Made by a program: the position numbers and the translations under genes. DNA of 32,000 nt. It comes from Nostoc punctiforme PCC 73102. Lineage in GTDB: Bacteria; Cyanobacteriota; Cyanobacteriia; Cyanobacteriales; Nostocaceae. Below the pieces are notes generated by a model. That model was given only the letters and a program-made list of their open reading frames with translations, did not search any database and was not told the DNA's origin. This document shows positions 4,409 to 32,000 of this stretch, in pieces. Numbering within the stretch: position 1 is the first letter of the stretch; every line of letters begins with the position of its first letter. The DNA lies in contig NC_010628.1 in NCBI RefSeq assembly GCF_000020025.1, positions 4,440,001 to 4,472,000 of the forward strand. The letters are read 5' to 3'.

Positions 4409-4431
4409 TTGTACTGAGCGAAGTCGAAGTA

Positions 4432-4508
4432 TTGGTCATTAGTCATTGGTCGTTAGTCATTGGTCATTGGTCATTGGTCATTGGTCATTAGTCAGTGGTC
4501 ATTGGTTA
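4432..4508. repeat. STRR-type heptamer tandem repeat (TTGGTCA)n, 11 units
   Basis: Units TTGGTCA/TTAGTCA/TTGGTCG etc. lie head to tail from 4432. It sits in the intercistronic spacer between the second DUF2231-like gene and ctaC. An inverted degenerate partner (CAAATGA CAAAGGA CAATTGA CAAATGA) follows at about 4520-4547. Confidence 0.9.
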
Positions 4509-14734: not shown

Positions 14735-17700
14735 CTAAGTCCGTCCAACAAGGCTAGCGACTACTGTAGCCAACTCAGCCGCTTCAATAGGTTTGGGTAA
14801 ATGTAGCTGGTAACCTTCTTGTATAGCTCGCATCCGATCCTCTGCCCTAGCATAAGCTGTCAATGCTGCTGCGGGAATATTTCCCCCTTGTTCTGGCGAT
14901 CGCGATCGCAATTTGCGGATCAAAGAGTAACCATCCTCATTGGGCATACCAATGTCACTGACTAAAACATCTGGTTTCCATTCTGTAATTACCTGCAATG
15001 CTTCTTGAACTGATGCCACTGCTTTAACTTCGGCTTGGCACTGTTCGAGAACTGTGGTGATAAATTCACGGCTATCGGTTTGGTCATCTACAACCACTAC
15101 CCGCACACCAAGCAGGGAGACGAAGTGAAGAGGAGAAGAGGCAACGGGGAGAGGCTGCGAGACTGTGAATAGATGACTTTTCAAAAGTGGCAACTTGACT
15201 GTAAATGTTGCTCCTTGATCTTTTCCTGGACTATCTACCTGAACAGTACCACCATGTAATTCTACTAAATGAAGCACGATCGCTAATCCTAGTCCTAATC
15301 CACCGTAAGATCTAGTGTTAGAACTATCAGCTTGACGAAAGCGATCGAAGACGTAGGGGAGAAAATCAGGGCTAATACCAATACCTGTATCAATCACCTG
15401 AATTTGGGCATATTTCTCTGTTATATGTTGTTTTTCTTCGCCAGTTACCACTGACAATTGCAACTCTACCTGTCCACCTGTCGGTGTAAATTTGATGGCA
15501 TTAGATAACAGATTCCAGATAATTTGCTGCAAACGCTCAAAATCACCGGAAACTAGGAATTGGGAATTTTCGCTGCTGTCCTTTGAACGTTGATTGCTTT
15601 GGGATTCCGCTTCTCTTGATTCAACATTTTCGTGATTAATTTCTAATCCCAAATCTGAATTTGGCGCGATTGTTACCACGGGGAGTATCCCCAGTGGCGT
15701 ATTTCGCGTTTCTTTTGAGGAAATGATGGAAAATCTTAAATCGATTTCCTTGGATTGAGCGGCTAGGCTAACAGTCTCTAGGGTCGACTCAATCATCGGA
15801 ACCAAATTACAAGTACTGACATTGAGGTGTAACTTGCCTCTAATCATCCGCGATATATCGAGTAAGTCTTCAATTAGCTGGGTTTGCGCCTTAGCATTGC
15901 GCTCAATTGTCTCCGTAGCCTTAGCCATTTGGCTTTCACTCAGCTTGCTTCGTTGCAGGAGTTGCGCCCAGCCCAAAATTGCATTGAGGGGCGATCGCAA
16001 TTCGTGAGACAATATCCCCAGAAATTCGTCTTTCATACGGTTCGCCTCTTGTAACTGCTCAGTTTGTTTTTGCAAAAAGGCAATTAAACTAGCCCGTTCC
16101 ATTGCGATCGCTATTTGGTCGCATACTGCTTGCATCATCCCCTTTTGATTTTCCGTGAAGCTTAACCGAGTGCGGCTGCCAAAAGAAAGAGTACCCAACA
16201 GCCGTCCTTGGGCGAGCAATGGGTATGCATAATAACCAGTAATGCCTAATGAGCGAATCAATTCTGTTTGCGGGTCGGTAGATTGCTGCACATTCTCTAC
16301 AGCTATGGAATGGCGTGAGAGCGCTACAGTACCAGAAACCCCTTGACCAAATGGCAAGTACTCAATTTCCTTTGCCAGTTCTTGAGAAATACCACTGTAA
16401 GACCCTAGTCGCATTACTTGGGAGTTATCCTCAACCAAATAGTTCAAATAAACATCTAAACCAATTTGCTCTCTTAGTTTTCGGTAGACGCTATCGATTA
16501 GTAGTACTGGTTCTTGGCTTGAGAGTAAATCGTTAGCTGTGTCAAATAGTAGCTTTAGTCTTTTGTAACCTAACGAGAGTGCTTTTTCTGCCTGTTTGAG
16601 GTTGCTAATCTCTTGGAACACCAAGATACAGGTAGCCGGATGACCGTGCATTGCTGGCAAGGTATCAGCAAATATCAGTAGAGAGCGCACACCAGAGGGA
16701 GTATGCCAGTCTACTTCTAATCCATTGAGACGTTCACCAAGGGCAACCCGCACTCCTGGCATTTGTTCATTGGGAATGCGATCGCCTGCCGCATCTGTAT
16801 AGTGGTAAACTGTGTGATAATTTTCTGCTGGTACACCTTTAGGAAATTCGCCCCCAGCTAATTCATTAGCAGAACGATTTGCAAAAGTTACCCGCGCCGT
16901 TCCTGGTTCGATAAACAGCAAGGGTCTTGGCATCAGATTTAATACATCTTCCAGCCATTTTTGCTGATTTAGAAGTATTTCTTGTGCCTGTTTGCGCTCC
17001 GTAATATCTAAAAATGCCCCAACACTTCCTCTAGTTTTACCCTCTTCATCAAACAGAGGTGCAACGTACTCTAACAGGTTGACAATTTTTCCATTTTCAT
17101 GAACTACCTCAAGTTCACAATCCACAACTTCGACACCATGAGCAGCAGAGTATTGCATTGGCAGTTCCTCTTCTGACAGTTCTCTTCCCTCTCGGTAGAT
17201 TTTAAAGCTTGTGGATTTTTCATCACTAGGAACATTGAGAGAGCCATTTGTATTTGAAGATATCCCCAACTGCTTGGCAAAAGCAGGGTTTACCTTGATA
17301 TTTTGGGATAGTGGATCTTCGGCAATGCCAATTCCAATGGGAATTACCTCCAACAAAGTTTGTAACTCAGTAATGCGGCGCTGTAGATCCTTGTTTAGTT
17401 GTAAGATTTTTTCTTTAGCCTGCTTTTGTTCGCTAATGTTACGAGTCACAGTTGCTAAGGCAATTGGCTGACCTGTGTTGTTGTCTGTAACAGTGAAGAT
17501 ATTGTAATCAACTGGTATTGGTTGACCTGTTTGGAGATGCCGAAAGCAGAATTCTCCCTGCCAGCGCCCTTCTGATAGTACAGTCGGCAGTATATATTTT
17601 TGAAAATAGGCTTTGTCTTTGGGCATGAAGTAATCTAATACTACTTTTTGCCTCACTTCTTCAAGGCTAGCAAGTCCTACCAGTTTTTGACCTGCATCAT

Positions 17701-19135
17701 TTATATAGAGTAATTGACCCTCAAGGGTGGCGATACCGATAAAGTCAGAGCTATTTTCTACCAGCGATACTAATTTTTGTTGCTCTGCTTCTGCAAGCTT
17801 ACGTTCGCTTAAGTCGAGGATAAATGCTACTGACTCTTCCCGTTTTTCTCCTAACAGCACGTAACCAACTAAAACTGGGATGCGGCTACCATCCTTGCGA
17901 ATATATTCTTTCTCGTAGGGCGTACAAGTAGCGTTAGTGTTTTTTTGTGCTTCGGCGACACCTCGCAGATCCAAGTATAGATACTCTGGTGGTGTGATAT
18001 TGCTCCAACTTAATCTACCCTCTGACAAATCCTCCTGAGTGTAACCAATCATCCTGAGAAATTCGTCGTTTGCTTCCTGGATACCGCCATACACATCGCC
18101 AAACAGAATACCAATAACGTTAGAATCTACGAAACTCCCCAGTTTATCCTGGTAGGTTCTTAGTGCTTCCCGAGCAAGATCGCGTTGATGGCTGAGGCGT
18201 TCAATAACCCTGGCACTTTGCCAAATCAAAATAGTAAAAATCACAATCAGGACGATCGCAAACACCGATACTGCAAAAGCCGGATCATATTGTCCTGCGC
18301 GTTGACCTTCAATAATTACCCACCCTAATACAAAAGGTACTGCGATCGCGGCAACCAACAAACGACGTGCAAGTAAGCCACCATAAGTATCACTTGTAAC
18401 TACCCTCATTAAGCCCTGTTCTGCCCGCGCCCACAGAATACCTATACTTAGCAAAATGAACAACACCGCTGTATGTAAAGCCATCGATGTTGTATAAGGG
18501 GCAAGTCCGTAAAGAACTTTCACTTTGTAGACATAGCCCATGAGCGCCTGCAAGGAAATTAAAGTAGCGATCAGAGCGATAATTTGAGCAGACCAATAAC
18601 TACGGTGGTTTTTTGGATTAATCAGAATCTGTAGGGCAACGCTGACTAGCATAAAGTTGAATGCTGTGTTTACCCCCATTCGCCCCGGATACAATGTCGT
18701 CATACTAGTTGGCGAATCCAGGAACAGCATCTCATCAATACCCAGATTCCAACCGAACAGATATTCACAAAGTGTAAGTGCAGCAATTGTGGTGACAGCT
18801 ATTGCACAGACCCTGGAAATTACCAGAGTAGGGAAGTCGAGAAGTCGAAAGGTCGAAGGGTGAGGATAGTTTTGAATCGTTCTTTTCCCCTTATTCCCTG
18901 CCTTTAAAAACAGCCACAATGATAAACCAGACAGCACAAAACACAACGCTGTATTGACTTTCATCGTGGCAAGACTACTAGGGAAGCCGCGCTTGAGAAC
19001 TTCAATTCCAAGCCACCAGCCAATTAGCACCAAGCTGCCAACCAAGATGGGTATTACACTTGCGAATTTTGCCACAAGTAAATTTCTTGGGATTTTGAAT
19101 ATACCTTGCAGCCGCAAGCGGTTAACGTTTAACAT
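14735..19135 (-). CDS. large hybrid sensor histidine kinase: polytopic membrane sensor - multiple PAS - GAF - HisKA - HATPase - REC
   Basis: 1466 aa. The first ~310 aa hold about 8-9 hydrophobic helices. Repeated PAS-like segments each end in (S/T)ERK(Q/L)AE. A GAF-like region precedes the H-box LSHELRSPL. The HATPase domain (DTGIGIS, GLGLGLAIV) has a long Ser/Glu-rich insertion. C-terminal receiver (VVVVDDQ...SDIGMPNEDG...PKP). Confidence 0.95.
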   Translation of the reverse strand: MLNVNRLRLQGIFKIPRNLLVAKFASVIPILVGSLVLIGWWLGIEVLKRGFPSSLATMKVNTALCFVLSGLSLWLFLKAGNKGKRTIQNYPHPSTFRLLDFPTLVISRVCAIAVTTIAALTLCEYLFGWNLGIDEMLFLDSPTSMTTLYPGRMGVNTAFNFMLVSVALQILINPKNHRSYWSAQIIALIATLISLQALMGYVYKVKVLYGLAPYTTSMALHTAVLFILLSIGILWARAEQGLMRVVTSDTYGGLLARRLLVAAIAVPFVLGWVIIEGQRAGQYDPAFAVSVFAIVLIVIFTILIWQSARVIERLSHQRDLAREALRTYQDKLGSFVDSNVIGILFGDVYGGIQEANDEFLRMIGYTQEDLSEGRLSWSNITPPEYLYLDLRGVAEAQKNTNATCTPYEKEYIRKDGSRIPVLVGYVLLGEKREESVAFILDLSERKLAEAEQQKLVSLVENSSDFIGIATLEGQLLYINDAGQKLVGLASLEEVRQKVVLDYFMPKDKAYFQKYILPTVLSEGRWQGEFCFRHLQTGQPIPVDYNIFTVTDNNTGQPIALATVTRNISEQKQAKEKILQLNKDLQRRITELQTLLEVIPIGIGIAEDPLSQNIKVNPAFAKQLGISSNTNGSLNVPSDEKSTSFKIYREGRELSEEELPMQYSAAHGVEVVDCELEVVHENGKIVNLLEYVAPLFDEEGKTRGSVGAFLDITERKQAQEILLNQQKWLEDVLNLMPRPLLFIEPGTARVTFANRSANELAGGEFPKGVPAENYHTVYHYTDAAGDRIPNEQMPGVRVALGERLNGLEVDWHTPSGVRSLLIFADTLPAMHGHPATCILVFQEISNLKQAEKALSLGYKRLKLLFDTANDLLSSQEPVLLIDSVYRKLREQIGLDVYLNYLVEDNSQVMRLGSYSGISQELAKEIEYLPFGQGVSGTVALSRHSIAVENVQQSTDPQTELIRSLGITGYYAYPLLAQGRLLGTLSFGSRTRLSFTENQKGMMQAVCDQIAIAMERASLIAFLQKQTEQLQEANRMKDEFLGILSHELRSPLNAILGWAQLLQRSKLSESQMAKATETIERNAKAQTQLIEDLLDISRMIRGKLHLNVSTCNLVPMIESTLETVSLAAQSKEIDLRFSIISSKETRNTPLGILPVVTIAPNSDLGLEINHENVESREAESQSNQRSKDSSENSQFLVSGDFERLQQIIWNLLSNAIKFTPTGGQVELQLSVVTGEEKQHITEKYAQIQVIDTGIGISPDFLPYVFDRFRQADSSNTRSYGGLGLGLAIVLHLVELHGGTVQVDSPGKDQGATFTVKLPLLKSHLFTVSQPLPVASSPLHFVSLLGVRVVVVDDQTDSREFITTVLEQCQAEVKAVASVQEALQVITEWKPDVLVSDIGMPNEDGYSLIRKLRSRSPEQGGNIPAAALTAYARAEDRMRAIQEGYQLHLPKPIEAAELATVVASLVGRT

Positions 19136-19960: not shown

Positions 19961-21814
19961 ATGAGAAAGCTTATATTATTGTGCTTGTTTGTCATTGGGC
20001 TGGGAGCTGCCATATTTGGTTTCCTGAATTTCCAGGGAATGGCAGTTAAAGGAGAGTTTGAGACGATTTTGCTTGATTTTCGGGAAGATATTCCATCAGA
20101 TGTGGTGCAACAGAATCTCCAAGCGATCGCCAAACAATACAACGTTACACCCCAATTAGACAACAAGTTTTCAGAAAAAGATCGTGTTTATATTGTCAAA
20201 GGAGATCGCCAGCGACTCCAAGAACTGAAAAAATCTCAGTTCGTCCAAGCTACAGAATTCATTGAGCCAAATTACATCTATACAAAGATTCCACAACCAG
20301 GTGAAAAAGCTTGGTTAGGAGAATTTTTAAGACCCAAAGAAAATGATGATGAGACAAGCCCATCATTAACTGGCCCCAATGACCAATATTACAGCAAGCA
20401 GTGGAACTTGCACAAAATTGGTATTGAAGGCGCATGGAGTCAAACCAAAGGCAGTGGCATTACAGTTGCGGTAATTGACACCGGGATTACTAAGGTGCGC
20501 GACTTATATGAGACAAAATTCGTCAAAGGCTATGATTTTGTTAACGACCGAGAAGAAGCCAAAGACGATAACGGCCACGGTACCCATGTTGCCGGAACTA
20601 TTGCTCAAGCCACAAATAACAAATATGGCGTAGCTGGAATTGCTTATGAAGCCAGTCTGATGCCGTTAAAGGTACTAAGTTCTTATGGCGGCGGTACAGT
20701 TGCCGATATAGCCGAGGCGATTAAATTTGCTGCTGATAAAGGCGCAGATGTGATTAATATGAGCTTGGGCGGTAGCGGTGAAAGCAAGTTGATGAAAGAA
20801 GCGATCGAGTATGCCCATAGAAAAGGTGTAGTTATCATTGCCGCAGCTGGGAATGAAAATACCAATGGCGCAAGCTATCCAGCCCGATATCCTTATGTAA
20901 TAGGCGTTTCGGCAATTGGCCCAGATGGCGAAAGAGCGCCCTATTCTAACTTTGGTGCTGGGGTAGATATCTCGGCTCCAGGCGGTAGTGAAGCTGGTAA
21001 GATTCTCCAAGAAACTATCGACGAAAATGGCGAAGGGGTATTTCTGGGCTTCCAGGGTACAAGCATGGCTTCTCCCCACGTTGCTGGTGTTGCAGCATTA
21101 ATCAGAGCTGCTGGTATCAAAGAACCAGATGAAGTTTTAAAAGTCCTCAAGCAGTCGGCGCGAGTTATCCAAGATGATGGTTTGAACTATTATGGCGCTG
21201 GACAACTCAATGCAGAAGCAGCAGTCAGACTAGCTTTCGGAGGACAAATCAGTTTTCCAGACTTCTTTCGGTGGTTACGCGATAACGGCTATCTTAACCC
21301 TGGCTTTTGGATTGATGGTGGTGCAGTGGCACTATTACCCAAGATTTTAATGGTAGTTGGCTCTTATCTACTGGCTTGGTTTTTACGGGTTTACTTCCCC
21401 TTTACTTGGAGTTGGTCTTTATCTAGTGGACTAATCGCTGGCAGTTCCGGGTTATTCTTCCTCAAGGGAATCTATATTTTTGATCTTCCCCAATGGCCTT
21501 TCCGGGTTTTGGGCAGTTCAATTCCCGAACTAGGTAATACCCTCCAGGGAACTGATGCGTTGAATCCCCTATTTGCCAGTGTACTGATTCCCATTTTGTT
21601 AATGGCATTGCTGCTGGGAAATCCTAGTTGGAAATGGTTTGCCATTGGTTCAACATTAGGTATAGCAGCCTGCTTGACAGTAAGTGCATTTTTAGATCCA
21701 GCCGTTTGGGGTTTGGGAAGTGGCAACATATCACGCCTCTTCCTCATCGTTAATGCCCTAATCTGCTATGGACTGGCTCGTTTAGCATTGAAAAACGAAG
21801 AAAAAATCGCATAA
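19961..21814 (+). CDS. S8 (subtilisin-like) serine peptidase fused to a C-terminal polytopic membrane domain
   Basis: Signal-anchor N-terminus. Catalytic motifs VAVIDTGI (Asp), HGTHVAGT (His), GTSMASPHVAG (Ser). The last ~170 aa contain about 5 hydrophobic helices. Confidence 0.9.
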   Translation: MRKLILLCLFVIGLGAAIFGFLNFQGMAVKGEFETILLDFREDIPSDVVQQNLQAIAKQYNVTPQLDNKFSEKDRVYIVKGDRQRLQELKKSQFVQATEFIEPNYIYTKIPQPGEKAWLGEFLRPKENDDETSPSLTGPNDQYYSKQWNLHKIGIEGAWSQTKGSGITVAVIDTGITKVRDLYETKFVKGYDFVNDREEAKDDNGHGTHVAGTIAQATNNKYGVAGIAYEASLMPLKVLSSYGGGTVADIAEAIKFAADKGADVINMSLGGSGESKLMKEAIEYAHRKGVVIIAAAGNENTNGASYPARYPYVIGVSAIGPDGERAPYSNFGAGVDISAPGGSEAGKILQETIDENGEGVFLGFQGTSMASPHVAGVAALIRAAGIKEPDEVLKVLKQSARVIQDDGLNYYGAGQLNAEAAVRLAFGGQISFPDFFRWLRDNGYLNPGFWIDGGAVALLPKILMVVGSYLLAWFLRVYFPFTWSWSLSSGLIAGSSGLFFLKGIYIFDLPQWPFRVLGSSIPELGNTLQGTDALNPLFASVLIPILLMALLLGNPSWKWFAIGSTLGIAACLTVSAFLDPAVWGLGSGNISRLFLIVNALICYGLARLALKNEEKIA

Positions 21815-21927: not shown

Positions 21928-22152
21928 ATGAGCATTACACTTACAGGTACAATCGAACGCCGTGATATAGGCACAGGCGCATGGGCGTTAGTTACAGAAG
22001 AGGGCGTTACTTACGAAATCCTTAAAGGGGCTGACAAAAACTTACTCAAAGCCGGACAAAAAGCAAAAGTAAAAGGACAGGTGCGTGAAGATATCATGAC
22101 TATTGCCATGATTGGCCCTGTCTTAGAGGTCAAATCTTTTGAAGTAATTTAG
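21928..22152 (+). CDS. small hypothetical protein (74 aa)
   Basis: ORF with an ATG start and a Lys/Gly-rich, probably beta-type sequence. No family recognised. Its stop overlaps the stop of the convergent gene. Confidence 0.45.
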   Translation: MSITLTGTIERRDIGTGAWALVTEEGVTYEILKGADKNLLKAGQKAKVKGQVREDIMTIAMIGPVLEVKSFEVI

Positions 22153-22472
22153 TTCTGATTACCTGTAGAATCCAGAACCTCTTGCAGACGGCTTCTAAAT
22201 TCCCCTTTGGGATGACCTCCTTTTACTTCACCCACAATCTGAAATTCCCCTTCTGGAGAATTGCAGATGATGTAAGTAGGCCATCCCATTTCTGATTTAT
22301 CGGGATACTGAGTTAATAAAATCTTGCGATACTTGCGGTAAGCAGTCGTATCCTGCATTTTCACATCAATAAATTCTAAACCCAGTTCTTCAGCCACCTT
22401 TTTGTCGTAAAAAGACATTTTATGGCAGATGCCGCACTCTTCTGAAGAGAACTTAATTACAGCTAAACTCAT
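22149..22472 (-). CDS. thioredoxin-fold protein (CxxC)
   Basis: 107 aa. A CGIC motif near the N-terminus, followed by a thioredoxin-like pattern (WPTYIIC...G). Confidence 0.7.
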   Translation of the reverse strand: MSLAVIKFSSEECGICHKMSFYDKKVAEELGLEFIDVKMQDTTAYRKYRKILLTQYPDKSEMGWPTYIICNSPEGEFQIVGEVKGGHPKGEFRSRLQEVLDSTGNQN

Positions 22473-22988
22473 GGGTTGGCGACTCTTTGATTCTAAGCAA
22501 AGTTTTTTAGCATAATGCCATGAAATATTACCATATAGCTGGTTATTAGTGTCAACTTAAAGCTGAAACCCTTATCCAGTATCTTTTCCTGCGTCCTTGC
22601 TTCTATGTTTTTTGGGAAGAAGAGCCTTCAGGACTACATTCCCAGGTTGAACATACAAACAAGAAAGATACACATGTAGTTACCAAGGAAACTCTGACTC
22701 GGAAGCTGAAAGCAGTGATTGCTGGCAGACAAATAATTAAACGCCAAAATATAGAAAAAAAATTAAGAATATGATTAAATATCATAGCAATCATTTTGAT
22801 GTGGCATCTCTAGCTCACAATAAAAAGAAAGGGATTCAGGAATTGAGTGAGCAAGTTATGTTCTATCCTGGCAGCAGGAAGATACTCAAGGTCTACCAAA
22901 AGTGACAACCAGAGTAGTGGTGCATTCTAGTTATGTCAGTAGGAAATGCTAGGGCGATGTTTAACGACAAGCCGCTACGCGTTTATGC

Positions 22989-23050
22989 AAAAAAACCCCT
23001 GATGAGCATTAGCCAATCAGGGGAGTTAGTTATCAGGGTGCATCTACCAA
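22989..23050 (-). ncRNA. nsiR1: NsiR1-like sRNA, copy 1 (intact)
   Basis: Minus strand: TCCGGA (23084-23079), then about 30 nt, then body GGTAGATGCACCCTGATAACTAACT. Hairpin CCCCTGAT...ATCAGGGG (perfect 8 bp) and a U7 tail (A-run 22989-22995 on the + strand). The 5' end is approximate. Confidence 0.8.
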
Positions 23051-23078
23051 TTAAATGTTCTTAGGTTTAACATCATAT

Positions 23079-23084
23079 TCCGGA
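23079..23084 (-). promoter_or_regulatory. DIF+-type TCCGGA motif of copy 1
   Basis: Palindromic TCCGGA about 30-35 nt upstream of the conserved RNA body. The same position recurs in copies 2, 7 and 9. Confidence 0.65.
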
Positions 23085-23118
23085 TAAATTTGGATAAAGG
23101 CTAGTTATTTTTTAAAAT

Positions 23119-23179
23119 AAAAAACCCCCAGATGATGTTAGTCTACTAGGGGAGTTAGTTATCAGGGTGCATCTACCAA
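23119..23179 (-). ncRNA. nsiR1: NsiR1-like sRNA, copy 2 (intact)
   Basis: Same organisation as copy 1. TCCGGA at 23208-23213, identical body, hairpin + U6. Confidence 0.8.
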
Positions 23180-23207
23180 TTAAGTGTTCTCACGTTTAAC
23201 ACCATAC

Positions 23208-23213
23208 TCCGGA
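23208..23213 (-). promoter_or_regulatory. DIF+-type TCCGGA motif of copy 2
   Basis: TCCGGA at the conserved distance from the copy 2 body. Confidence 0.65.
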
Positions 23214-23246
23214 TAATTTGGACAAAGGCTAATTATTTTTTAAAAT

Positions 23247-23306
23247 AAAAAACCCCCAGATGATGTTAGTCTACTAGGGGAGTTAGTTATCAGGGTGCAT
23301 CTACCA
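23247..23306 (-). ncRNA. nsiR1: NsiR1-like sRNA, copy 3 (body and terminator intact, promoter region altered)
   Basis: Body and terminator match copy 2. The upstream motif reads TCCGGG (23335-23340). The spacer to the next unit is longer (155 bp period) and carries extra sequence (GGCTATGCCTACG-type dispersed repeat). Confidence 0.65.
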
Positions 23307-23401
23307 TTAATGTTTTCTAGGGCAGCGAGTATCTTCCGGGGAAAATGGCAAAAATCAGGGTTGACGGCCATGTCTAGGAAGGGCTATGCCTACGTAACTA
23401 G

Positions 23402-23462
23402 AAAAAAACCCCCAGTGGGTTTTAGCCAACCAGGGGAGTAAGTTATCAGGGTGCATCTATTG
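23402..23462 (-). ncRNA. nsiR1: NsiR1-like sRNA, copy 4 (variant promoter motif)
   Basis: U7 tail, hairpin and body GCACCCTGATAACTTACT are conserved. The upstream motif on the transcribed strand is TCCGGT (23497-23492), and the 5' part of the body has diverged. Confidence 0.6.
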
Positions 23463-23538
23463 ATCATCTTTTCTAAAGTAAATGGGTAGCTACCGGATAA
23501 AATAGCAGAGGTTGAAGTTATTGTTGTTTGCTCACCAG

Positions 23539-23600
23539 AAAAAAACCTCAAAGTTGTTAACCAACCAGAGGAGTTAGTTATCAGATGTTGGTTTCAAGTG
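23539..23600 (-). ncRNA. NsiR1-like unit 5 (degenerate, probably non-functional)
   Basis: The A7 run and TAACTAACTCCTC segment are retained, but the GCACCC core is lost and the hairpin is weakened. The nearest TCCGGT-type motif (23718-23723) is about 180 bp away. Confidence 0.35.
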
Positions 23601-23743
23601 AAGCTAAAGTCTTTCAGAATCTCGTTTATCTGTAAATGATACTCATAGGGGTACTGGCGCGAATTTAGGAGGTGCTAGCCTATATGAGGATTAAAAGAGA
23701 TTCTTAAAGAGCAATCTACCGGATAAATTGACGCTCACCAGAG

Positions 23744-23803
23744 AAAATCCTCAGTGGGTGTTAGCGAACTAGGGGAGCTAGTTATCAGGGTGCATCTATC
23801 AAT
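23744..23803 (-). ncRNA. NsiR1-like unit 6 (body intact, weak terminator, no TCCGGA)
   Basis: Body GATAGATGCACCCTGATAACTAGCT is present. The U-tract is only 4 nt and the hairpin is imperfect. No TCCGGA lies within the following 60 bp. Confidence 0.4.
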
Positions 23804-23869
23804 TAAATAACCAGTGCATTGCCTTAAAAATTTGATGCGTCAGAAATGATTGCTGCTAAATTCCTTCAT

Positions 23870-23931
23870 AAAAAAACCCCCAGTGGGTGTTAGCCAACCA
23901 GGGGAGCTAGTTATCAGGGTGCATCTACCAA
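23870..23931 (-). ncRNA. nsiR1: NsiR1-like sRNA, copy 7 (intact)
   Basis: TCCGGA at 23960-23965, full body, a hairpin with G-U pairs that work only on the minus strand, and a U7 tail. Confidence 0.8.
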
Positions 23932-23959
23932 TTAAGTGTTCTAGGTTTAACCACCATGC

Positions 23960-23965
23960 TCCGGA
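23960..23965 (-). promoter_or_regulatory. DIF+-type TCCGGA motif of copy 7
   Basis: TCCGGA, then a 16-17 nt spacer, then TAGAAC (-10-like), then the TTGGTAGATG body start. Confidence 0.65.
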
Positions 23966-23992
23966 TAAATTTATTAGAAAGGCGTGTCTACG

Positions 23993-24052
23993 AAACTCTA
24001 GTAGATATTAACTGAATTAGGGGAGTTAAAAATCAAGGGACATCTATCTAGT
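23993..24052 (-). ncRNA. NsiR1-like unit 8 (decayed copy)
   Basis: It aligns with copy 9 along its length, but the hairpin arms no longer pair, the U-tract is lost (GAAAC on the + strand) and TCCGGA is replaced by TTTTTTGG. Confidence 0.3.
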
Positions 24053-24131
24053 AATCAAGTATTCTAGGATTAAGCACTATTTTTTGGTAAAGAATATCTG
24101 CGTTAAAAGTTGCTGTTGTTTGCCAAAATTG

Positions 24132-24193
24132 AAAAAAACCCCTAGTAGGTGTTAGCCAACTAGGGGAGTTGAAGATCAAGGTGCATCTACCAA
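24132..24193 (-). ncRNA. nsiR1: NsiR1-like sRNA, copy 9 (intact variant, closest to hetF)
   Basis: TCCGGA at 24222-24227. Body variant GCACCTTGATCTTCAACT. Perfect 8-bp hairpin CCCCTAGT/ACTAGGGG and a U7 tail. It lies 140-240 nt upstream of the hetF start on the opposite strand. Confidence 0.75.
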
Positions 24194-24221
24194 TTAAGTG
24201 TTCTAGATCCAAGTAATCCGA

Positions 24222-24227
24222 TCCGGA
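24222..24227 (-). promoter_or_regulatory. DIF+-type TCCGGA motif of copy 9
   Basis: TCCGGA at the conserved distance from the copy 9 body. Confidence 0.65.
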
Positions 24228-24330
24228 TAAAGTTGTAAAGGCAGAAAAAGCAAAACAACACCGAATCAGAAACATTCAGGGGTGGGATGCATCTAAATTA
24301 TCAGAGGGAGCAAATCGACTTGAAACTTTC

Positions 24331-26874
24331 GTGTTTCAAACCAGATTTAGGAGGCGGACAGGAGAAGTTGTGACCCAGGAATTTCACATTTCCGTAACCC
24401 CAGTAGGGCAAAATGACTACTTGGTGCGGACGGAACAAGTCGCGCCTGGGGTACCATTGGCAGAAGAATTGGTGACTTGGCCTGTAGCTGATTGGTTAAT
24501 AGCTGCTGGGCATTTGATGAATGACCCGTTGAAATCGGTGTTGCAGGGAGATCCATTTACCTCTGGTGGGCACGAAAGCAATATCGCCAGAAACTCTGTT
24601 AACTTGGTGGCGTTGGGTCAACAATTTTATAACGCCTTATTTCAAGGCACTCTCAGAGATAGTTGGATTACTGCCCAAGGTATTGCCCAGAATCACCAAC
24701 AAGTACTACGCTTACGCTTGGGGCTAAAGGACACTAGGTTAGCTCGTTTACCTTGGGAAGTGATGCACGCAGGCGATCGCCCTCTGGCTACTGGGCCTTA
24801 TGTGGCTTTTTCTCGCTTCCAAAGTGGCATTTTGGGGGGTTCTCCTTTGCGATCGCGCAATACTTTCACAACACGAGAACAAGGTGGCGTGAAAGTATTG
24901 ATGGTAATTGCTTCTCCCTCAGATCAAGCCCGTCTTGACTTACAGAAACAGGAAGCGATTAAACTGCAAGCGGAACTTCACCGTCAAACATCACGAGTTG
25001 CTGAAGGTAACAATCGTTTCCCAGAAATTGAACTTACTGTATTAGACCAACCAGGACGGGAAGAACTGACGCAAGCCCTAGAACAAGGCAGATACCAAGT
25101 TCTTCACTACTCTGGTCATAGTAACTTAGGCGGCAATGGCGGAGAAATTTATCTTGTTAGTCGCAGAACTGGCTTAACGGAAATCTTGAGTGGAGACGAT
25201 CTGGCAGGTCTGCTCGTCAACAATAATATTCAAATGGCAGTGTTTAATTCCTGCTTGGGGGCGTACACAGCTGCATCCGATCCTTCTGGAGATACGGGTG
25301 AACGTAATCTGGCAGAAAGTCTCGTGAAGCGTGGAATTAGAAGCGTTTTGGCTATGTCAGAACGTATTCCTGATGAAGTGGCATTGACACTCACACAATT
25401 GTTTTACCGCAACTTGAGTCAGGGATATCCCGTAGATTTGTGCGTTAGTCGGGTACGCCAAGGATTAATTTCTGCTTATGGTTCTCACCAGATGTACTGG
25501 GCATTACCGATTTTATATCTCCAGCCAGAATCTGACGGTTTTCTCAGTGAAGAAATTGAGGTATCCGAAACAACAGACTTGCGGGATCAGTATAATTCAC
25601 CTTTAGGAATAACTTCCACGATGTACTCTGCGATCGCAGATGATAACGATATGCCTTTAGGAATGGAAGAAATGATTCCTGCTGGTTTAGCGCGCGACTC
25701 TTCTGGGTTAGACTGGCTGGGTGAGGATACTTGGGGCGATCTCGTTGATGAAATTGAGTATGATGACCCAAGTTATGAAGAAGATTCTGCGATCGTTTCG
25801 GATTTGTTTCGTCAGCTAGATAACCAAAAAGCTACAACTGAACCGGATCAACAAATTCTAGAAAATAATTTTCAGCAAAGCCAGATTTCAGAAGAGATGA
25901 CTTCTCTGGAAGAAGAAGGAGATTTATGGAGAGAAATCCCGGCACCGCCACCTCCAATTACTGGTAAATTTCAAGGAAATCAGCAAAATTCTGAGTTTTC
26001 GCGTAGGCATAGCCCAACCCAGGCATCGCAACCAGCCGCACCAAGACATCGTACCCAACGCCGCAAGTTGTGGTCAATTGTGGGTATTGTGGGAATCAGT
26101 GCCTTAGTAGCTGCGATCGGTTTAAATTGGTGGTGGCAAAATCGATCCCAGATGGCAAATCTACCAAACATCCCAGCAATTTCCACCGATTCTTTATCTA
26201 TCCAAAAACAGCAAAATATCGATTTAGAAACAGCAACCACTGGAATTGTCACTACTAGCGCTACGCAAAAATTGAGCCAGGGAGATTTACAAGGTGGGTT
26301 GTTGGCTGTAGAAGAATTACTCAATCGTGGCGCACTAGCTGCGGCGGAAACTGCCCTTAAACTTATTCCAAATAAGCAAGTTGACGATCCATCTGTCAAC
26401 TTTTATAAGGGAAGATTAGCTTGGCAGTCTATCGGGACTGGAGACAATAACTATAGCGTCGATGATGCCCGCCGTTACTGGGAAACTGCTGCAAAAGCTA
26501 AACCAGAATCACTTTTGTATAATAACGCTTTAGGATTTGCCTACTACGCAGAAGGCAATCTAAATCGAGCCAATGACTCTTGGTTCAAAGCTTTGAATTT
26601 AGCTCTCAAAGAACAAAATACAGATTCAAAGACGGCAGTTCCTGAAGATGCTTTAACTTCTTATGCTGGTTTAGCTCTGGGACTGTATAAATCTGCACTT
26701 AGCCAATCTAGTGGGAAGCAGACACAGTATCTGAATGAAGCGATCAAGTTGCGGCAAATGGTTCTCAACTCTGATTCAGTAAATTTCCAGGTTGATAAAT
26801 TAGCTAAAAATTGGCTGTGGACGGAGAAGGCGATCGCAGATTGGCGATCGCTCCTTCAGGAAAAAGGTGAATAA
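24331..26874 (+). CDS. hetF: CHAT-domain (caspase-like) protease HetF, heterocyst differentiation protein
   Basis: CHAT His/Cys dyad context (VLHYSGHS and AVFNSCLGAY). Then an acidic low-complexity middle region, one TM helix (LWSIVGIVGISALVAAIGLNWWW) and a TPR-like C-terminus. It sits directly downstream of the NsiR1-type array, as hetF does in Nostoc PCC 7120. The true start may be GTG 24370 (MTQEFHISVTPVG) rather than GTG 24331. Confidence 0.85.
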   Translation: MFQTRFRRRTGEVVTQEFHISVTPVGQNDYLVRTEQVAPGVPLAEELVTWPVADWLIAAGHLMNDPLKSVLQGDPFTSGGHESNIARNSVNLVALGQQFYNALFQGTLRDSWITAQGIAQNHQQVLRLRLGLKDTRLARLPWEVMHAGDRPLATGPYVAFSRFQSGILGGSPLRSRNTFTTREQGGVKVLMVIASPSDQARLDLQKQEAIKLQAELHRQTSRVAEGNNRFPEIELTVLDQPGREELTQALEQGRYQVLHYSGHSNLGGNGGEIYLVSRRTGLTEILSGDDLAGLLVNNNIQMAVFNSCLGAYTAASDPSGDTGERNLAESLVKRGIRSVLAMSERIPDEVALTLTQLFYRNLSQGYPVDLCVSRVRQGLISAYGSHQMYWALPILYLQPESDGFLSEEIEVSETTDLRDQYNSPLGITSTMYSAIADDNDMPLGMEEMIPAGLARDSSGLDWLGEDTWGDLVDEIEYDDPSYEEDSAIVSDLFRQLDNQKATTEPDQQILENNFQQSQISEEMTSLEEEGDLWREIPAPPPPITGKFQGNQQNSEFSRRHSPTQASQPAAPRHRTQRRKLWSIVGIVGISALVAAIGLNWWWQNRSQMANLPNIPAISTDSLSIQKQQNIDLETATTGIVTTSATQKLSQGDLQGGLLAVEELLNRGALAAAETALKLIPNKQVDDPSVNFYKGRLAWQSIGTGDNNYSVDDARRYWETAAKAKPESLLYNNALGFAYYAEGNLNRANDSWFKALNLALKEQNTDSKTAVPEDALTSYAGLALGLYKSALSQSSGKQTQYLNEAIKLRQMVLNSDSVNFQVDKLAKNWLWTEKAIADWRSLLQEKGE

Positions 26875-27259: not shown

Positions 27260-28609
27260 CAAGGGGCGACAATGGTTGCTAAACCGAGCCAGATAAAGGT
27301 TTAGAAGGCACAGACCCTTTGAAAAAATGGGCTATTCTGGAGTGCTTATTGAGAATGAAATATGCAGGTGTCACAGACCCGCTTCTAGAGATCTATTTTA
27401 TGGTAAAAAAGAACGGTCTCGTAAATTGAACAAGACCGTCATCATAATGTTGCCCTCATTCTATCAAAAGTTTTTAGAGAAATACCTGAGTCAATCACAG
27501 TTAATAACTTTGAAGATGTTGGTGTGGTTGTTACAAAATCAAAAACAAGTCAGATTAGAAAGGCTGGCTGCAACACTACCTTTACCCATACAGCAAAATA
27601 GTCGGAGGCGACACTTACAAAGACTCCTAACGCTGAATGCTTTGAGTGTAGTGTTACTGTGGTTTCCCATAATTGAAGAGATACTTGGTAAGCAAATCAA
27701 AGCTGGCTCACAAGTAATTATTGCACTAGATAGAACACAATGGAAAGAAAATAATGTGCTAATGGTAAGTGTAATTTACCAAAAAAGAGCATGGCCAATA
27801 TATTGGTACTTGTTAGAAAAAGATGGTTGCAGTAACTTCCAAGAGCAACAAAAAGTTTTACGCCCAGTGATTCGCTTGTTAAAAAATTACAAAATAGTGA
27901 TTATTGGCGATAGAGAGTTTCATAGTATAGAATTAGCGGAGTGGTTACACAGGAAGAATCTCAGCTTTGTATTCCGTCAAAAAAAGGACACAACCTTCCG
28001 AGAGAAAAGACAAAAATTTCAGCCTTGAAGCAGCATTGATATTTATCCAGGAATCCGCCAGTTTTATTTGGGTATCAATTTGACTCAAAAACGAGGGTTT
28101 GGCAGATTTAATTTAGCAGTATATTGGAAAAGAAAATATCGCAATAAACAGGAACCAGAACCTTGGTATTTATTAACTAATCTGCCTGATTTAGAAACTG
28201 CTGCTCAAATCTACGGAGCGCGTTTCGGCATTGAAGCTATGTTCCGTGATTGTAAAACAGGTGGTTATAATCTCGAAGGTTCTAAAGCTAATCCTGATAG
28301 ACTTGTGCGTTTAATTTTCTTAATTGCTTTAGCCATGACAAGTGCTTGGTTACACGGACAAAGAACTAAATTGCAAAAACAAGAATCTTATATTTGTCGC
28401 ACTCAAGAAAAAAGTCGAACTTCTAAACGACATAGTAATTTTTGGATAGGTTTATATGGTCAAAATTGGATAGTCGCTTGGAATGAATGTCAAGCATGGG
28501 TTGAGGAACTGGTCGCTTCCATTCGCAATAAGCAGAGCTTTTATCTCAGGGGTTTAAGGGCTATGAAGCTTATACAGAAAGCACTTTAGCTCCATTGTCG
28601 CCCCTTGAA
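27258..28609 (+). mobile_element. IS4/IS701-like insertion sequence
   Basis: Terminal inverted repeats TTCAAGGGGCGACAATGG (27258-27275) and CCATTGTCGCCCCTTGAA (28592-28609) enclose one transposase frame. If the ends are instead 27259/28608, AGT flanks both sides as a possible 3-bp duplication. Confidence 0.85.
27447..28589 (+). pseudogene. IS4-family DDE transposase interrupted by a single in-frame TGA (28026-28028)
   Basis: Track ORFs 27327..28028 and 28068..28589 are in the same frame, separated only by a TGA and 13 sense codons. DDE context ALDRTQW, IGDREF, GIEAMFRDCK. The likely start is ATG 27447 (MLPSFYQKF). Confidence 0.8.
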
Positions 28610-28618
28610 GTCTTTTAC

Positions 28619-28685
28619 ACTCGTGAATGAGTCTTTAATACTCGTGGACGAGTCTCTGATACTCGTGGACGAGTATTAAAGACTC
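28619..28685. repeat. 3 x 21-bp tandem repeat of a mini-hairpin (ACTCG-TGGA-CGAGT) nested in a larger 16-bp inverted repeat
   Basis: Units start at 28619, 28640 and 28661. The outer arms GAGTCTTTAATACTCG (28629-28644) and CGAGTATTAAAGACTC (28670-28685) are perfectly complementary. Confidence 0.85.
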
Positions 28686-29414: not shown

Positions 29415-30239
29415 TTAAACTTTTGCCGCCGCAGCACCTGGTAAATTGACTTTCAATCGCTTAAACATCGCTTCTCTTGCTTGTGCAGCAAGGCTGTCGT
29501 CAAAAGGTTTTAAGGTAATTTCTTGCTGATACTTTAGCCGCAGCGCTGTTTGAATTAACCAATCGGCGACAAAAGGATTTTTCGGTAACAATGGGCCGTG
29601 GGAATAAGTAGCGATCGCATTCTGATAAAATGCTCCTTCTGTGCCATCTTCACCATTATTTCCCAAACCGTACACCACGCGCCCCAAAGCTTCCACTTTT
29701 CCCAGTTTGGTACGTCCACCGTGATTTTCAAAGCCTACCAAATATGGTGTAGTACCCGTCATCTCTCGCAAATCTTGCGCTAGGCGTGAAGCTGTCACTT
29801 CAATTACCAAGTTCCCAATACAGCGCTTAGTATTTTCACCAGGATGCACGGAAACTAAATCGAGTATTCCTAAACCATCAATCCGTTGTCCTAAGCCTGG
29901 TTCATAATAATGTCCCAGTAATTGGGGGGAACCACAAGTAAATACTCCTGGTGTACCATTTTCGATTTTCTCACGCATCGCATCAGCTTTTGCACCTTGC
30001 AAATCACGCATGACAATTTCTTGCTGACGATCTTGTGCGCCACCACCAACGATGACATCTACAGTTTTAATATCTGCGGCTGTGGCATTTTGATCTAGGG
30101 GTAACACTTTAACATCATATCCCCGCCATTGAGCGCGACGTTCTATAGTAATTACATTACCGCGATCGCCATAAGTACTCATCAGCGTCGGGTACAACCA
30201 ACCTATTGTTAATTCTAAATTTTGAGAACTCATATTCAT
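29415..30239 (-). CDS. gatD: glutamine amidotransferase subunit GatD of lipid II isoglutaminyl synthase (CobB/CobQ-like GATase)
   Basis: Immediately downstream of murT. Nucleophile context GVFTCGSPQLLG and a His context ATYSHGPLLPKNP, as in GatD-type amidotransferases. Confidence 0.8.
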   Translation of the reverse strand: MNMSSQNLELTIGWLYPTLMSTYGDRGNVITIERRAQWRGYDVKVLPLDQNATAADIKTVDVIVGGGAQDRQQEIVMRDLQGAKADAMREKIENGTPGVFTCGSPQLLGHYYEPGLGQRIDGLGILDLVSVHPGENTKRCIGNLVIEVTASRLAQDLREMTGTTPYLVGFENHGGRTKLGKVEALGRVVYGLGNNGEDGTEGAFYQNAIATYSHGPLLPKNPFVADWLIQTALRLKYQQEITLKPFDDSLAAQAREAMFKRLKVNLPGAAAAKV

Positions 30240-30300
30240 AATTCGTAATTCGTAATTCGTAATTCGTAATTTGATTGGGTATTGGGAACTGGGGAATGGG
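30240..30300. repeat. composite heptamer repeats: (AATTCGT)x4 then 4 degenerate NAWTGGG heptamers
   Basis: AATTCGT units at 30240-30267. GATTGGG TATTGGG AACTGGG GAATGGG at 30273-30300. It lies in the murT-gatD intercistronic spacer. Confidence 0.9.
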
Positions 30301-31848: not shown

Positions 31849-32000
31849 CATCCACCTCAGAACTCCGTTCATCCACCTCGGAACTCCGTTCATCCACCTC
31901 GGAACTCCGTTAATCCATATCAGAACTCCGTTAATCCATATCAGAACTCCGTTCATCCACCTCGGAACTCCGTTAATCCACCTCGGAACTCCGTTAATCC
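31849..32000. repeat. 21-bp tandem repeat, at least 7 units, two sequence variants, truncated by the window end
   Basis: Units start at 31849, 31870, 31891, 31912, 31933, 31954 and 31975. Variant A is CATCCACCTCGGAACTCCGTT and variant B is AATCCATATCAGAACTCCGTT. Confidence 0.9.

Follow-up and report, generated by a model that had tools for sequence, protein, structure and literature searches.

A stretch of 32,000 nucleotides from Nostoc punctiforme PCC 73102 (contig NC_010628.1, positions 4,440,001 to 4,472,000; below, the window is this whole stretch and position 1 is its first letter) contains, upstream of the gene hetF and on the opposite strand, a tandem array of short units that we are highly confident is the NsiR1 locus of this Nostoc genome, that is, a set of self-contained small RNA (sRNA) genes. 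NsiR1 is a HetR-dependent, heterocyst-specific sRNA of ~60 nt that is induced in differentiating heterocysts (PMC4030482, PMC9045159). In Nostoc/Anabaena PCC 7120 twelve tandem NsiR1 copies lie upstream of hetF, and all heterocystous genomes examined possess several tandem copies near this gene (PMC4030482). The anatomy of the array, its family membership, the coding strand, the identity of hetF and the conservation of the architecture throughout the genus all come from the present analysis. An earlier reading of the same DNA, made from the letters without database searches (hereafter the sequence-only reading), had suggested the NsiR1 identity from the architecture of the repeats and had proposed a covariance-model search as a check.

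That search was run with Rfam cmscan on the whole window at the gathering thresholds, the gathering score of NsiR1 (RF02399) being 39 bits. Seven NsiR1 matches above this score were obtained (46.0–74.5 bits, E-values from 3e-13 to 3.6e-6), all on the minus strand and all full length (model positions 1–60), so that the NsiR1 assignment stands; no other Rfam family reached its gathering score in the whole-window scan. An eighth copy, at 23585–23538, lacks the first 12 model positions and was found below threshold (19.6 bits, E = 0.91) in a permissive covariance scan covering 22500–24900 (E ≤ 10); a profile hidden Markov model (HMM) built from the seven intact window copies recovered it with nhmmer at E = 8.8e-7. 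A ninth, badly decayed copy at 24048–23996 was retrieved by nhmmer (E = 3.3e-4) and by a general repeat finder (family D4), and was unseen by the Rfam model in the scan of 22500–24900 even at E ≤ 10. The general repeat finder, which is independent of both the covariance model (CM) and the HMM, returned families of eight copies whose union gives the same nine units. The nine recurring minus-strand units counted in the sequence-only reading are thus all recovered, seven by Rfam and two by nhmmer and the repeat finder. They are arranged head to tail on the minus strand at 22988–24230, divergent from hetF:

22988–23084, minus strand: unit 1, the most distal from hetF; DIF1 motif TCCGGA at 23079–23084, extended −10 AAGAACATTTAAT, body 23049–22988 (Rfam 66.3 bits), terminator with an 8-bp-plus stem and a U7 tail (fold −19.6 kcal/mol, z −2.9).
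23117–23213, minus strand: unit 2; TCCGGA at 23208–23213, body 23178–23117 (Rfam 72.1 bits), U6 tail.
23245–23340, minus strand: unit 3; CCCGGA (one mismatch) at 23335–23340, position −34, body 23306–23245 (Rfam 72.1 bits).
23401–23497, minus strand: unit 4; TCCGGT (one mismatch) at 23492–23497, position −35, body 23462–23401 (Rfam 59.3 bits), intact terminator with two G–U pairs.
23538–23723, minus strand: unit 5, decayed; TCCGGT at 23718–23723, a −10-like block, seed and terminator kept at 23585–23538.
23740–23801, minus strand: unit 6; body sequence kept at 23801–23740 (Rfam 46.0 bits), tail UUUUCUCU.
23869–23965, minus strand: unit 7; TCCGGA at 23960–23965, extended −10 TAGAACACTTAAT, body 23930–23869 (Rfam 74.5 bits, the best family match in the window), U7 tail.
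23996–24048, minus strand: unit 8, decayed; no promoter motif and no terminator tail, seed CCTTGATTTTTAACT resembling the proximal type.
24131–24227, minus strand: unit 9, hetF-adjoining and of the NsiR1.1 type; TCCGGA at 24222–24227, body 24192–24131 (Rfam 67.2 bits), private seed CCTTGATCTTCAACT, U7 tail, 5' end 178 nt from the hetF GTG.

Judged from sequence, six of the units (1, 2, 3, 4, 7 and 9) look functional, unit 6 is probably a promoterless, decaying copy, and units 5 and 8 are fossils. Successive 5' ends are 143, 119, 129, 204, 135, 156, 128 and 129 nt apart; the unit length of 125–155 bp given earlier is therefore roughly right, with two distances (119 and 204 nt) lying outside it. 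Tandem Repeats Finder reports only 2.3 copies (23019–23314, period 128, 93% matches), which correspond to the three youngest units, because the spacers have diverged, and it is therefore unusable for counting units. Units 2 and 3 share one and the same body sequence, which points to a recent duplication. The body of unit 4 begins with CAAUAGAUG, with the consequence that the small 5' hairpin is lost. In unit 5 an unrelated stretch of 103 nt (23598–23700) stands in place of the first ~13 nt of the body. This replacement is common to ten related Nostoc loci (L001–L009 and L012 in our numbering of loci), always at the same place and nowhere else, which marks it as an old lesion of one lineage rather than a mobile element. 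If the unit 5 promoter still fires, it would yield a chimeric RNA of ~150 nt with the 3' half of NsiR1. Upstream of unit 6 there is no DIF motif and no extended −10; the −35 hexamer is ATCAAA and the sequence from −13 to −1 is unlike that of the other units. Four non-standard pairs fall in the terminator stem of unit 6 and one in its 5' hairpin, and the predicted fold is without a terminator.

Exact TCCGGA occurs at four sites in the 32-kb window, all of them inside the array (units 1, 2, 7 and 9), and in each case the distance from its T to the RNA body start downstream is exactly 35 nt. Since 4.25 occurrences are expected by chance in the window, the signal is the placement of the motif and not its number. 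The earlier description, in which each good unit carries TCCGGA, holds exactly for four of the seven intact copies and with at most one mismatch for six (one TCCGGT and one CCCGGA in addition), and fails for unit 6. All six motif-bearing copies also possess an extended −10, of the form TAGAACAnTTAAT. Each of the PCC 7120 copies has its own promoter with the DIF motif TCCGGA around −35 (PMC4030482), and heterocyst-specific expression requires DIF1 together with an extended −10 that reaches from −13 to the start site (PMC6133370); the window array likewise combines DIF1 TCCGGA at −35 with an extended −10.

A wider promoter survey covered the window and 80 Nostoc species loci, with 426 intact and 92 degraded copies. 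Exact TCCGGA with its T at exactly −35 precedes 273 of the 426 intact copies, and the same −35 place is taken by TCCGGT in 68 and by CCCGGA in 41 of them; upstream of the degraded copies TCCGGA was found in none of 92. The conserved block tAGAACAtTTAAT occupies −13 to −1 across the surveyed copies. Promoter and body thus survive or decay together, as self-contained genes under selection would show. A simple sigma-70 scan gave nothing useful and a simple terminator scan gave one site only; DIF1 promoters do not suit the consensus rules of the former, nor interrupted stems those of the latter, so neither null carries weight.

The intact bodies are 62 nt long and align without gaps, positions 4–13, 15–18 and 25–31 being invariant; these positions cover the 5' box UAGAUGCACC for the most part and the single-stranded seed in part. 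The predicted layout is a 3-bp 5' hairpin, a single-stranded seed (nt 14–26) and an intrinsic terminator. In six of the seven intact bodies U6–7 comes after an interrupted 8–11-bp stem, the degraded one being unit 6, and this agrees with the layout proposed earlier, in which promoter, ~60-nt RNA and terminator are joined in one unit. The hairpin arms previously quoted for copy 1 (CCCCTGAT/ATCAGGGG) and copy 9 (CCCCTAGT/ACTAGGGG) are correct, and the two copies are separated by two compensatory pair swaps. Within the window three pairs are changed on both sides, a value reached in 18 of 500 shuffles. In a cross-species pairing test on 99 distinct copies (22 loci), 86.9% of cells in the terminator and the 5' hairpin pair, as compared with 39.7–61.4% when the 3' partner is slid by 1–3 columns.

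The minus strand is fixed as the transcribed one by the U-tail that follows the stem, by the one-strand Rfam matches and by the G–U pairs. A U–G pair at 31:50 is present in 81 of the 99 distinct copies in one set and in 196 of 214 in another, and a G–U pair at 32:49 is frequent; both become C–A mismatches on the plus strand. In copies 4 and 7 an unbroken stem of 8 bp, two of its pairs being G–U, forms on the minus strand, while on the plus strand the stem is interrupted and still folds (minus versus plus: −14.5 versus −11.3 kcal/mol for copy 4, −15.7 versus −14.5 kcal/mol for copy 7). The sequence-only reading had the stem of these two copies working only on the minus strand; the minus-strand stem is indeed the stronger, but the weakened plus-strand stem is not abolished.

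The gene opposite the array, which the sequence-only reading had described as a CHAT-protease gene and taken for hetF, is hetF: its product matches the NCBIfam equivalog NF045509 'cell division protein HetF' with 1471.5 bits (cut-off 1200) and contains a Pfam CHAT domain (4.4e-26). Since the NF045509 alignment begins only at residue 15 of the open reading frame (ORF), hetF truly starts at the GTG at 24370, downstream of the mechanical ORF start (24331). The gene and the elements preceding it are the following:

24088–24095, plus strand: conserved −10-like sequence TAAAGAAT, before the putative hetF leader.
24101–24369, plus strand: putative hetF 5' leader, which crosses unit 9 and a vestige of a further unit in antisense.
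24240–24296, minus strand: putative tenth unit, a vestige within the hetF leader that has no promoter motif.
24320–24339: conserved leader hairpin with a 7-bp stem (TTGAAAC/GTTTCAA), ~30–50 nt upstream of the start.
24360–24364, plus strand: Shine-Dalgarno sequence AGGAG.
24370–26874, plus strand: hetF (CHAT-domain protease, cell-division protein), 834 aa, GTG start, divergent from the array.

The GTG start and the AGGAG before it are kept in all 15 aligned Nostoc loci. The stretch from ~−270 to the GTG is almost invariant across these 15 diverse loci, while the HetF proteins have diverged to ~80% identity. The body of unit 9 occupies −239 to −178 relative to the GTG, and the unit is near-invariant in one of our alignments (A3). 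In PCC 7120 the hetF start site was mapped to −256, inside nsiR1.2 (PMC8406250). The geometry of hetF and the array is the same as in PCC 7120, and we place the putative hetF start site of the window, near 24101–24104, by analogy with −256 of that strain; unit 9 would then be antisense to the hetF 5' untranslated region (UTR), and unit 8 would sit where, by the same analogy, the hetF promoter is expected. A simple promoter scan gave no plus-strand site at the putative hetF start.

In order to place the array among its relatives, one genome per species (GTDB species representatives) was scanned with HetF, which yielded 80 loci; 76 of these are titled Nostoc and four are labelled otherwise (L007, L067, L072 and one more). 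The closest locus is that of Nostoc sp. LEGE 12450, the HetF of which is 97% identical and the flanks of which are syntenic and ~97% identical to the window. A covariance model derived from the window copies gave 573 matches in the 80 loci, and among the matches listed all lie upstream of hetF on the opposite strand. Complete loci possess 5–11 NsiR1 copies (median 7), and most Nostoc loci have a copy at the position of unit 7, 440–456 nt from the hetF start. The three closest genomes have ten units as compared with nine in the window. The difference is one distal unit of 129 bp, the outcome expected of unequal recombination between tandem repeats, and a single-unit change in copy number between ~97% identical strains fits birth-and-death turnover at the distal end. 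In 13 of the 80 species the contig ends inside the array (L012, L015, L016, L023, L026, L029, L030, L039, L041, L058, L065, L067 and L077), and all 22 Logan contigs with an identical HetF protein (including L081–L083) stop ~460 nt upstream of hetF. The NsiR1 repeat systematically breaks short-read assemblies, and copy numbers from draft genomes are therefore lower bounds.

Two classes of copy can be distinguished. All 81 loci possess a proximal copy that begins 178–190 nt from the hetF start and combines an exact TCCGGA with the seed CCTTGATCTTCAACT; this seed was found at none of 345 other array positions. Non-proximal copies carry the seed CCCTGATAACT(A/C)(A/G)CT; by analogy with PCC 7120, CCCUGAUAACUAACU is taken as the candidate pairing segment toward the homologue of alr3234. 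The arrangement of one locked, putatively antisense-type copy and a variable pool of siblings holds in 81 of the 81 Nostoc loci examined.

The window array closely resembles the NsiR1 array of PCC 7120 (alr3546 region). Both belong to the same RNA family, are laid out in tandem, head to tail and divergent from hetF, and have units ending in a hairpin-plus-U-tail terminator. In both there are two classes of copy, namely a proximal one with a divergent seed (NsiR1.1-like) and a group of similar siblings (NsiR1.4-like), and the position relative to hetF is nearly the same (window body −239 to −178, PCC 7120 start −256). The window differs in having nine units, about six of them functional-looking, instead of 12, and in lacking the block of seven identical copies, only the bodies of units 2 and 3 being identical. 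Two intact window units have one-mismatch motifs (TCCGGT and CCCGGA), one unit carries the 103-nt replacement and one is promoterless. The window RNA, with a length of 62 nt predicted from sequence, also differs from the Rfam NsiR1 consensus by a 2-nt insertion. The arrays of other Nostoc species are similar in that the copies lie on the minus strand upstream of hetF with an invariant proximal copy 178–190 nt from the GTG, and differ in copy number (5–11; ten units in the closest relatives versus nine in the window). Multicopy sibling sRNAs of Escherichia coli, Pseudomonas, Bacillus and Sinorhizobium are likewise near-identical genes with additive or partly different targets; those are usually present in 2–5, often dispersed copies, whereas NsiR1 forms a long tandem array and, unlike the other siblings, includes one member that is also a cis-antisense RNA (PMC9045159).

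Several observations weigh against reading the array as a set of active, structurally selected sRNA genes. Unit 6 scores above the Rfam threshold and yet lacks both a promoter and a good terminator, which means that a family match is no guarantee of an active gene. Most copies fold no better than shuffled sequences (for units 2, 4 and 7, z lies between −0.1 and −0.5). Among the 99 cross-species copies, double-sided changes are confined to three pairs and seven cells, a level reached in 20 of 500 shuffles, and the number of pairs changed on both sides does not exceed that of shuffles (3 versus 2.6 expected, 247 of 500). The earlier argument from covariation to selection on structure was thus overstated: the helix of NsiR1 is real and conserved and the covariation is weak evidence for such selection, the case for structure coming from the conserved complementarity relative to slid controls and from the G–U strand bias. 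In one report a hetF transcriptional fusion was little affected by the removal of nsiR1.1 (PMC8406250); regulation of translation would be consistent with this result, which nevertheless lends it no support. Finally, the expression pattern, transcript ends, heterocyst specificity, HetR dependence and targets are taken over from PCC 7120 and would apply to the window by analogy.

One rival explanation is that the units are cut from a single long read-through RNA that starts at one or a few promoters, with no initiation at individual units. Unit 6, a good body without a promoter motif, would indeed depend on read-through from unit 7 for any RNA, and units 5 and 8 are also devoid of a complete promoter-to-body arrangement. 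We nevertheless regard this as very unlikely for the array as a whole, given that a separate DIF1-type motif at −34/−35, plus an extended −10, precedes six of the seven intact copies, that a hairpin with a U6–7 tail closes six of the seven, that TCCGGA is confined genus-wide to the upstream side of intact bodies (0 of 92 degraded copies), and that each PCC 7120 copy has its own promoter (PMC4030482). The repeats might alternatively be non-coding DNA with no sRNA function, such as an insulating stack of terminators, protein-binding repeats or a decaying remnant. Such a role would accommodate the clear decay of three of the nine units (5, 6 and 8), the variation in copy number (5–11 between species, one unit between ~97% identical strains) and the weak covariation. 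It is exceedingly improbable all the same: conservation is highest in the unpaired 5' part and the seed, with invariant positions in the seven window copies, a pattern that a terminator or insulator role does not need, the promoter motif is kept at a fixed distance, and the proximal copy does not vary among the 81 loci. The chance that the region encodes a small protein or is a CRISPR-like array is next to negligible. A mechanical ORF of 75 aa (24048–24275, minus strand) overlaps units 8 and 9, and the repeats do alternate with unique spacers; the ORF, which has no Pfam match, runs across promoter, sRNA body and terminator, and was rejected. The CRISPR-like reading was rejected as well, the repeats being ~62 nt long with a promoter and terminator of their own, and NsiR1 being the only family at the Rfam gathering score. 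The NsiR1 locus remains the preferred reading.

The sequence-only reading had also pointed to a tenth vestige at about 24244–24300. A gapped alignment of 24240–24296 to unit 1, the best of three references, scored 36.5 versus 17.9 ± 3.6 in shuffles (0 of 1000 as good), which favours the claim, but both the CM and the HMM profile searches failed to detect the vestige. With unit 7 as reference 14 of 1000 shuffles were as good, with unit 9 the alignment was not significant (207 of 1000), and an ungapped local alignment was marginal (18 of 1000). The elements expected of a unit are present in the right order, namely a 5' box TAGATGCA, a ~10-nt deletion in the seed, the hairpin CCCCTGAAT/ATTCGGTG and a U-rich tail. 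A fossil tenth unit is plausible, not proven.

The hetF mRNA at 24275–24296 is predicted to pair with NsiR1 nt 4–17 at −19.3 kcal/mol (11 of 500 shuffles as good). This predicted second pairing site would lie 75–95 nt upstream of the GTG, beside the conserved hairpin and the Shine-Dalgarno sequence. One could imagine that the ~270-nt hetF leader is built of decayed NsiR1 units in antisense (unit 9 in full, unit 8 in part, and the vestige) and that the vestige serves as a second pairing site for siblings acting in trans, a model to which we give little credence. If true, the pairing site in the vestige would explain both the partial repression of hetF by non-proximal copies and the invariance of the non-coding leader in spite of the divergence of HetF to ~80%.

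The remainder of the window contains several further features. Downstream of the array are two conserved ORFs, one of 107 aa (22149–22472, minus strand) with a CxxC motif (CGIC) and one of 74 aa (21928–22152, plus strand); their median identities in ~30 Nostoc loci are 96% and 95%, respectively, and neither has a Pfam or NCBIfam match. The locus is flanked by a gene for a subtilase (Peptidase_S8) fused to DUF5942 (19961–21814, plus strand) and one for a 1466-aa hybrid PAS histidine kinase with a response-regulator domain (14735–19135, minus strand). The segment 27260–28608 is absent from the otherwise syntenic locus of Nostoc sp. LEGE 12450 and contains two adjacent ORFs (27327–28028 and 28068–28589), each a partial match to the transposase domain DDE_Tnp_1; it resembles a strain-specific insertion sequence whose transposase is split. 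Tandem arrays with a period of 21 bp are found at 1651–1733 (4.0 copies), at 28609–28685 (3.7 copies), starting exactly where synteny with L001 resumes past the insertion sequence, and at 31850–32000, where 7.2 copies of ATCCACCTCGGAACTCCGTTA run off the end of the window. Heptamers are repeated in tandem at 4431–4506 (ATTGGTC, 10.9 copies) and at 30234–30271 (ATTCGTA, 5.4 copies).

The function of the array can be pictured on the model of PCC 7120. In two papers, which relay the mechanism at second hand, NsiR1.1, the hetF-adjoining copy of that strain, is described as antisense to the hetF 5' UTR and as an inhibitor of hetF translation (PMC9045159, PMC11797042). NsiR1.4, which comprises seven identical central copies, represses the hetP-like gene alr3234 and, in part, hetF (PMC9045159). 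By analogy, the DIF1-class promoters of the window would fire, in a HetR-dependent manner, only in cells turning into heterocysts, and the many copies may jointly give a burst of sRNA. The RNA of unit 9, antisense to the long hetF 5' UTR, would inhibit translation of hetF, and this inhibition may, as the PCC 7120 papers suggest, affect the level to which HetR accumulates. The other copies, with their different seed, would act in trans to repress a hetP-like mRNA (alr3234 in PCC 7120), which may advance commitment to differentiation as in that strain, and might partly act on hetF too.

The NsiR1 array beside hetF is real, well preserved and already known biology, as the sequence-only reading had judged probable: the system it described maps onto published NsiR1 (PMC4030482, PMC9045159). 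The RNA, its tandem layout, the DIF1 promoter and the link to hetF were published between 2010 and 2022, and the array is picked up directly by a curated Rfam model. The finding is of practical use for annotation; ORF-based pipelines overlook the NsiR1 locus.

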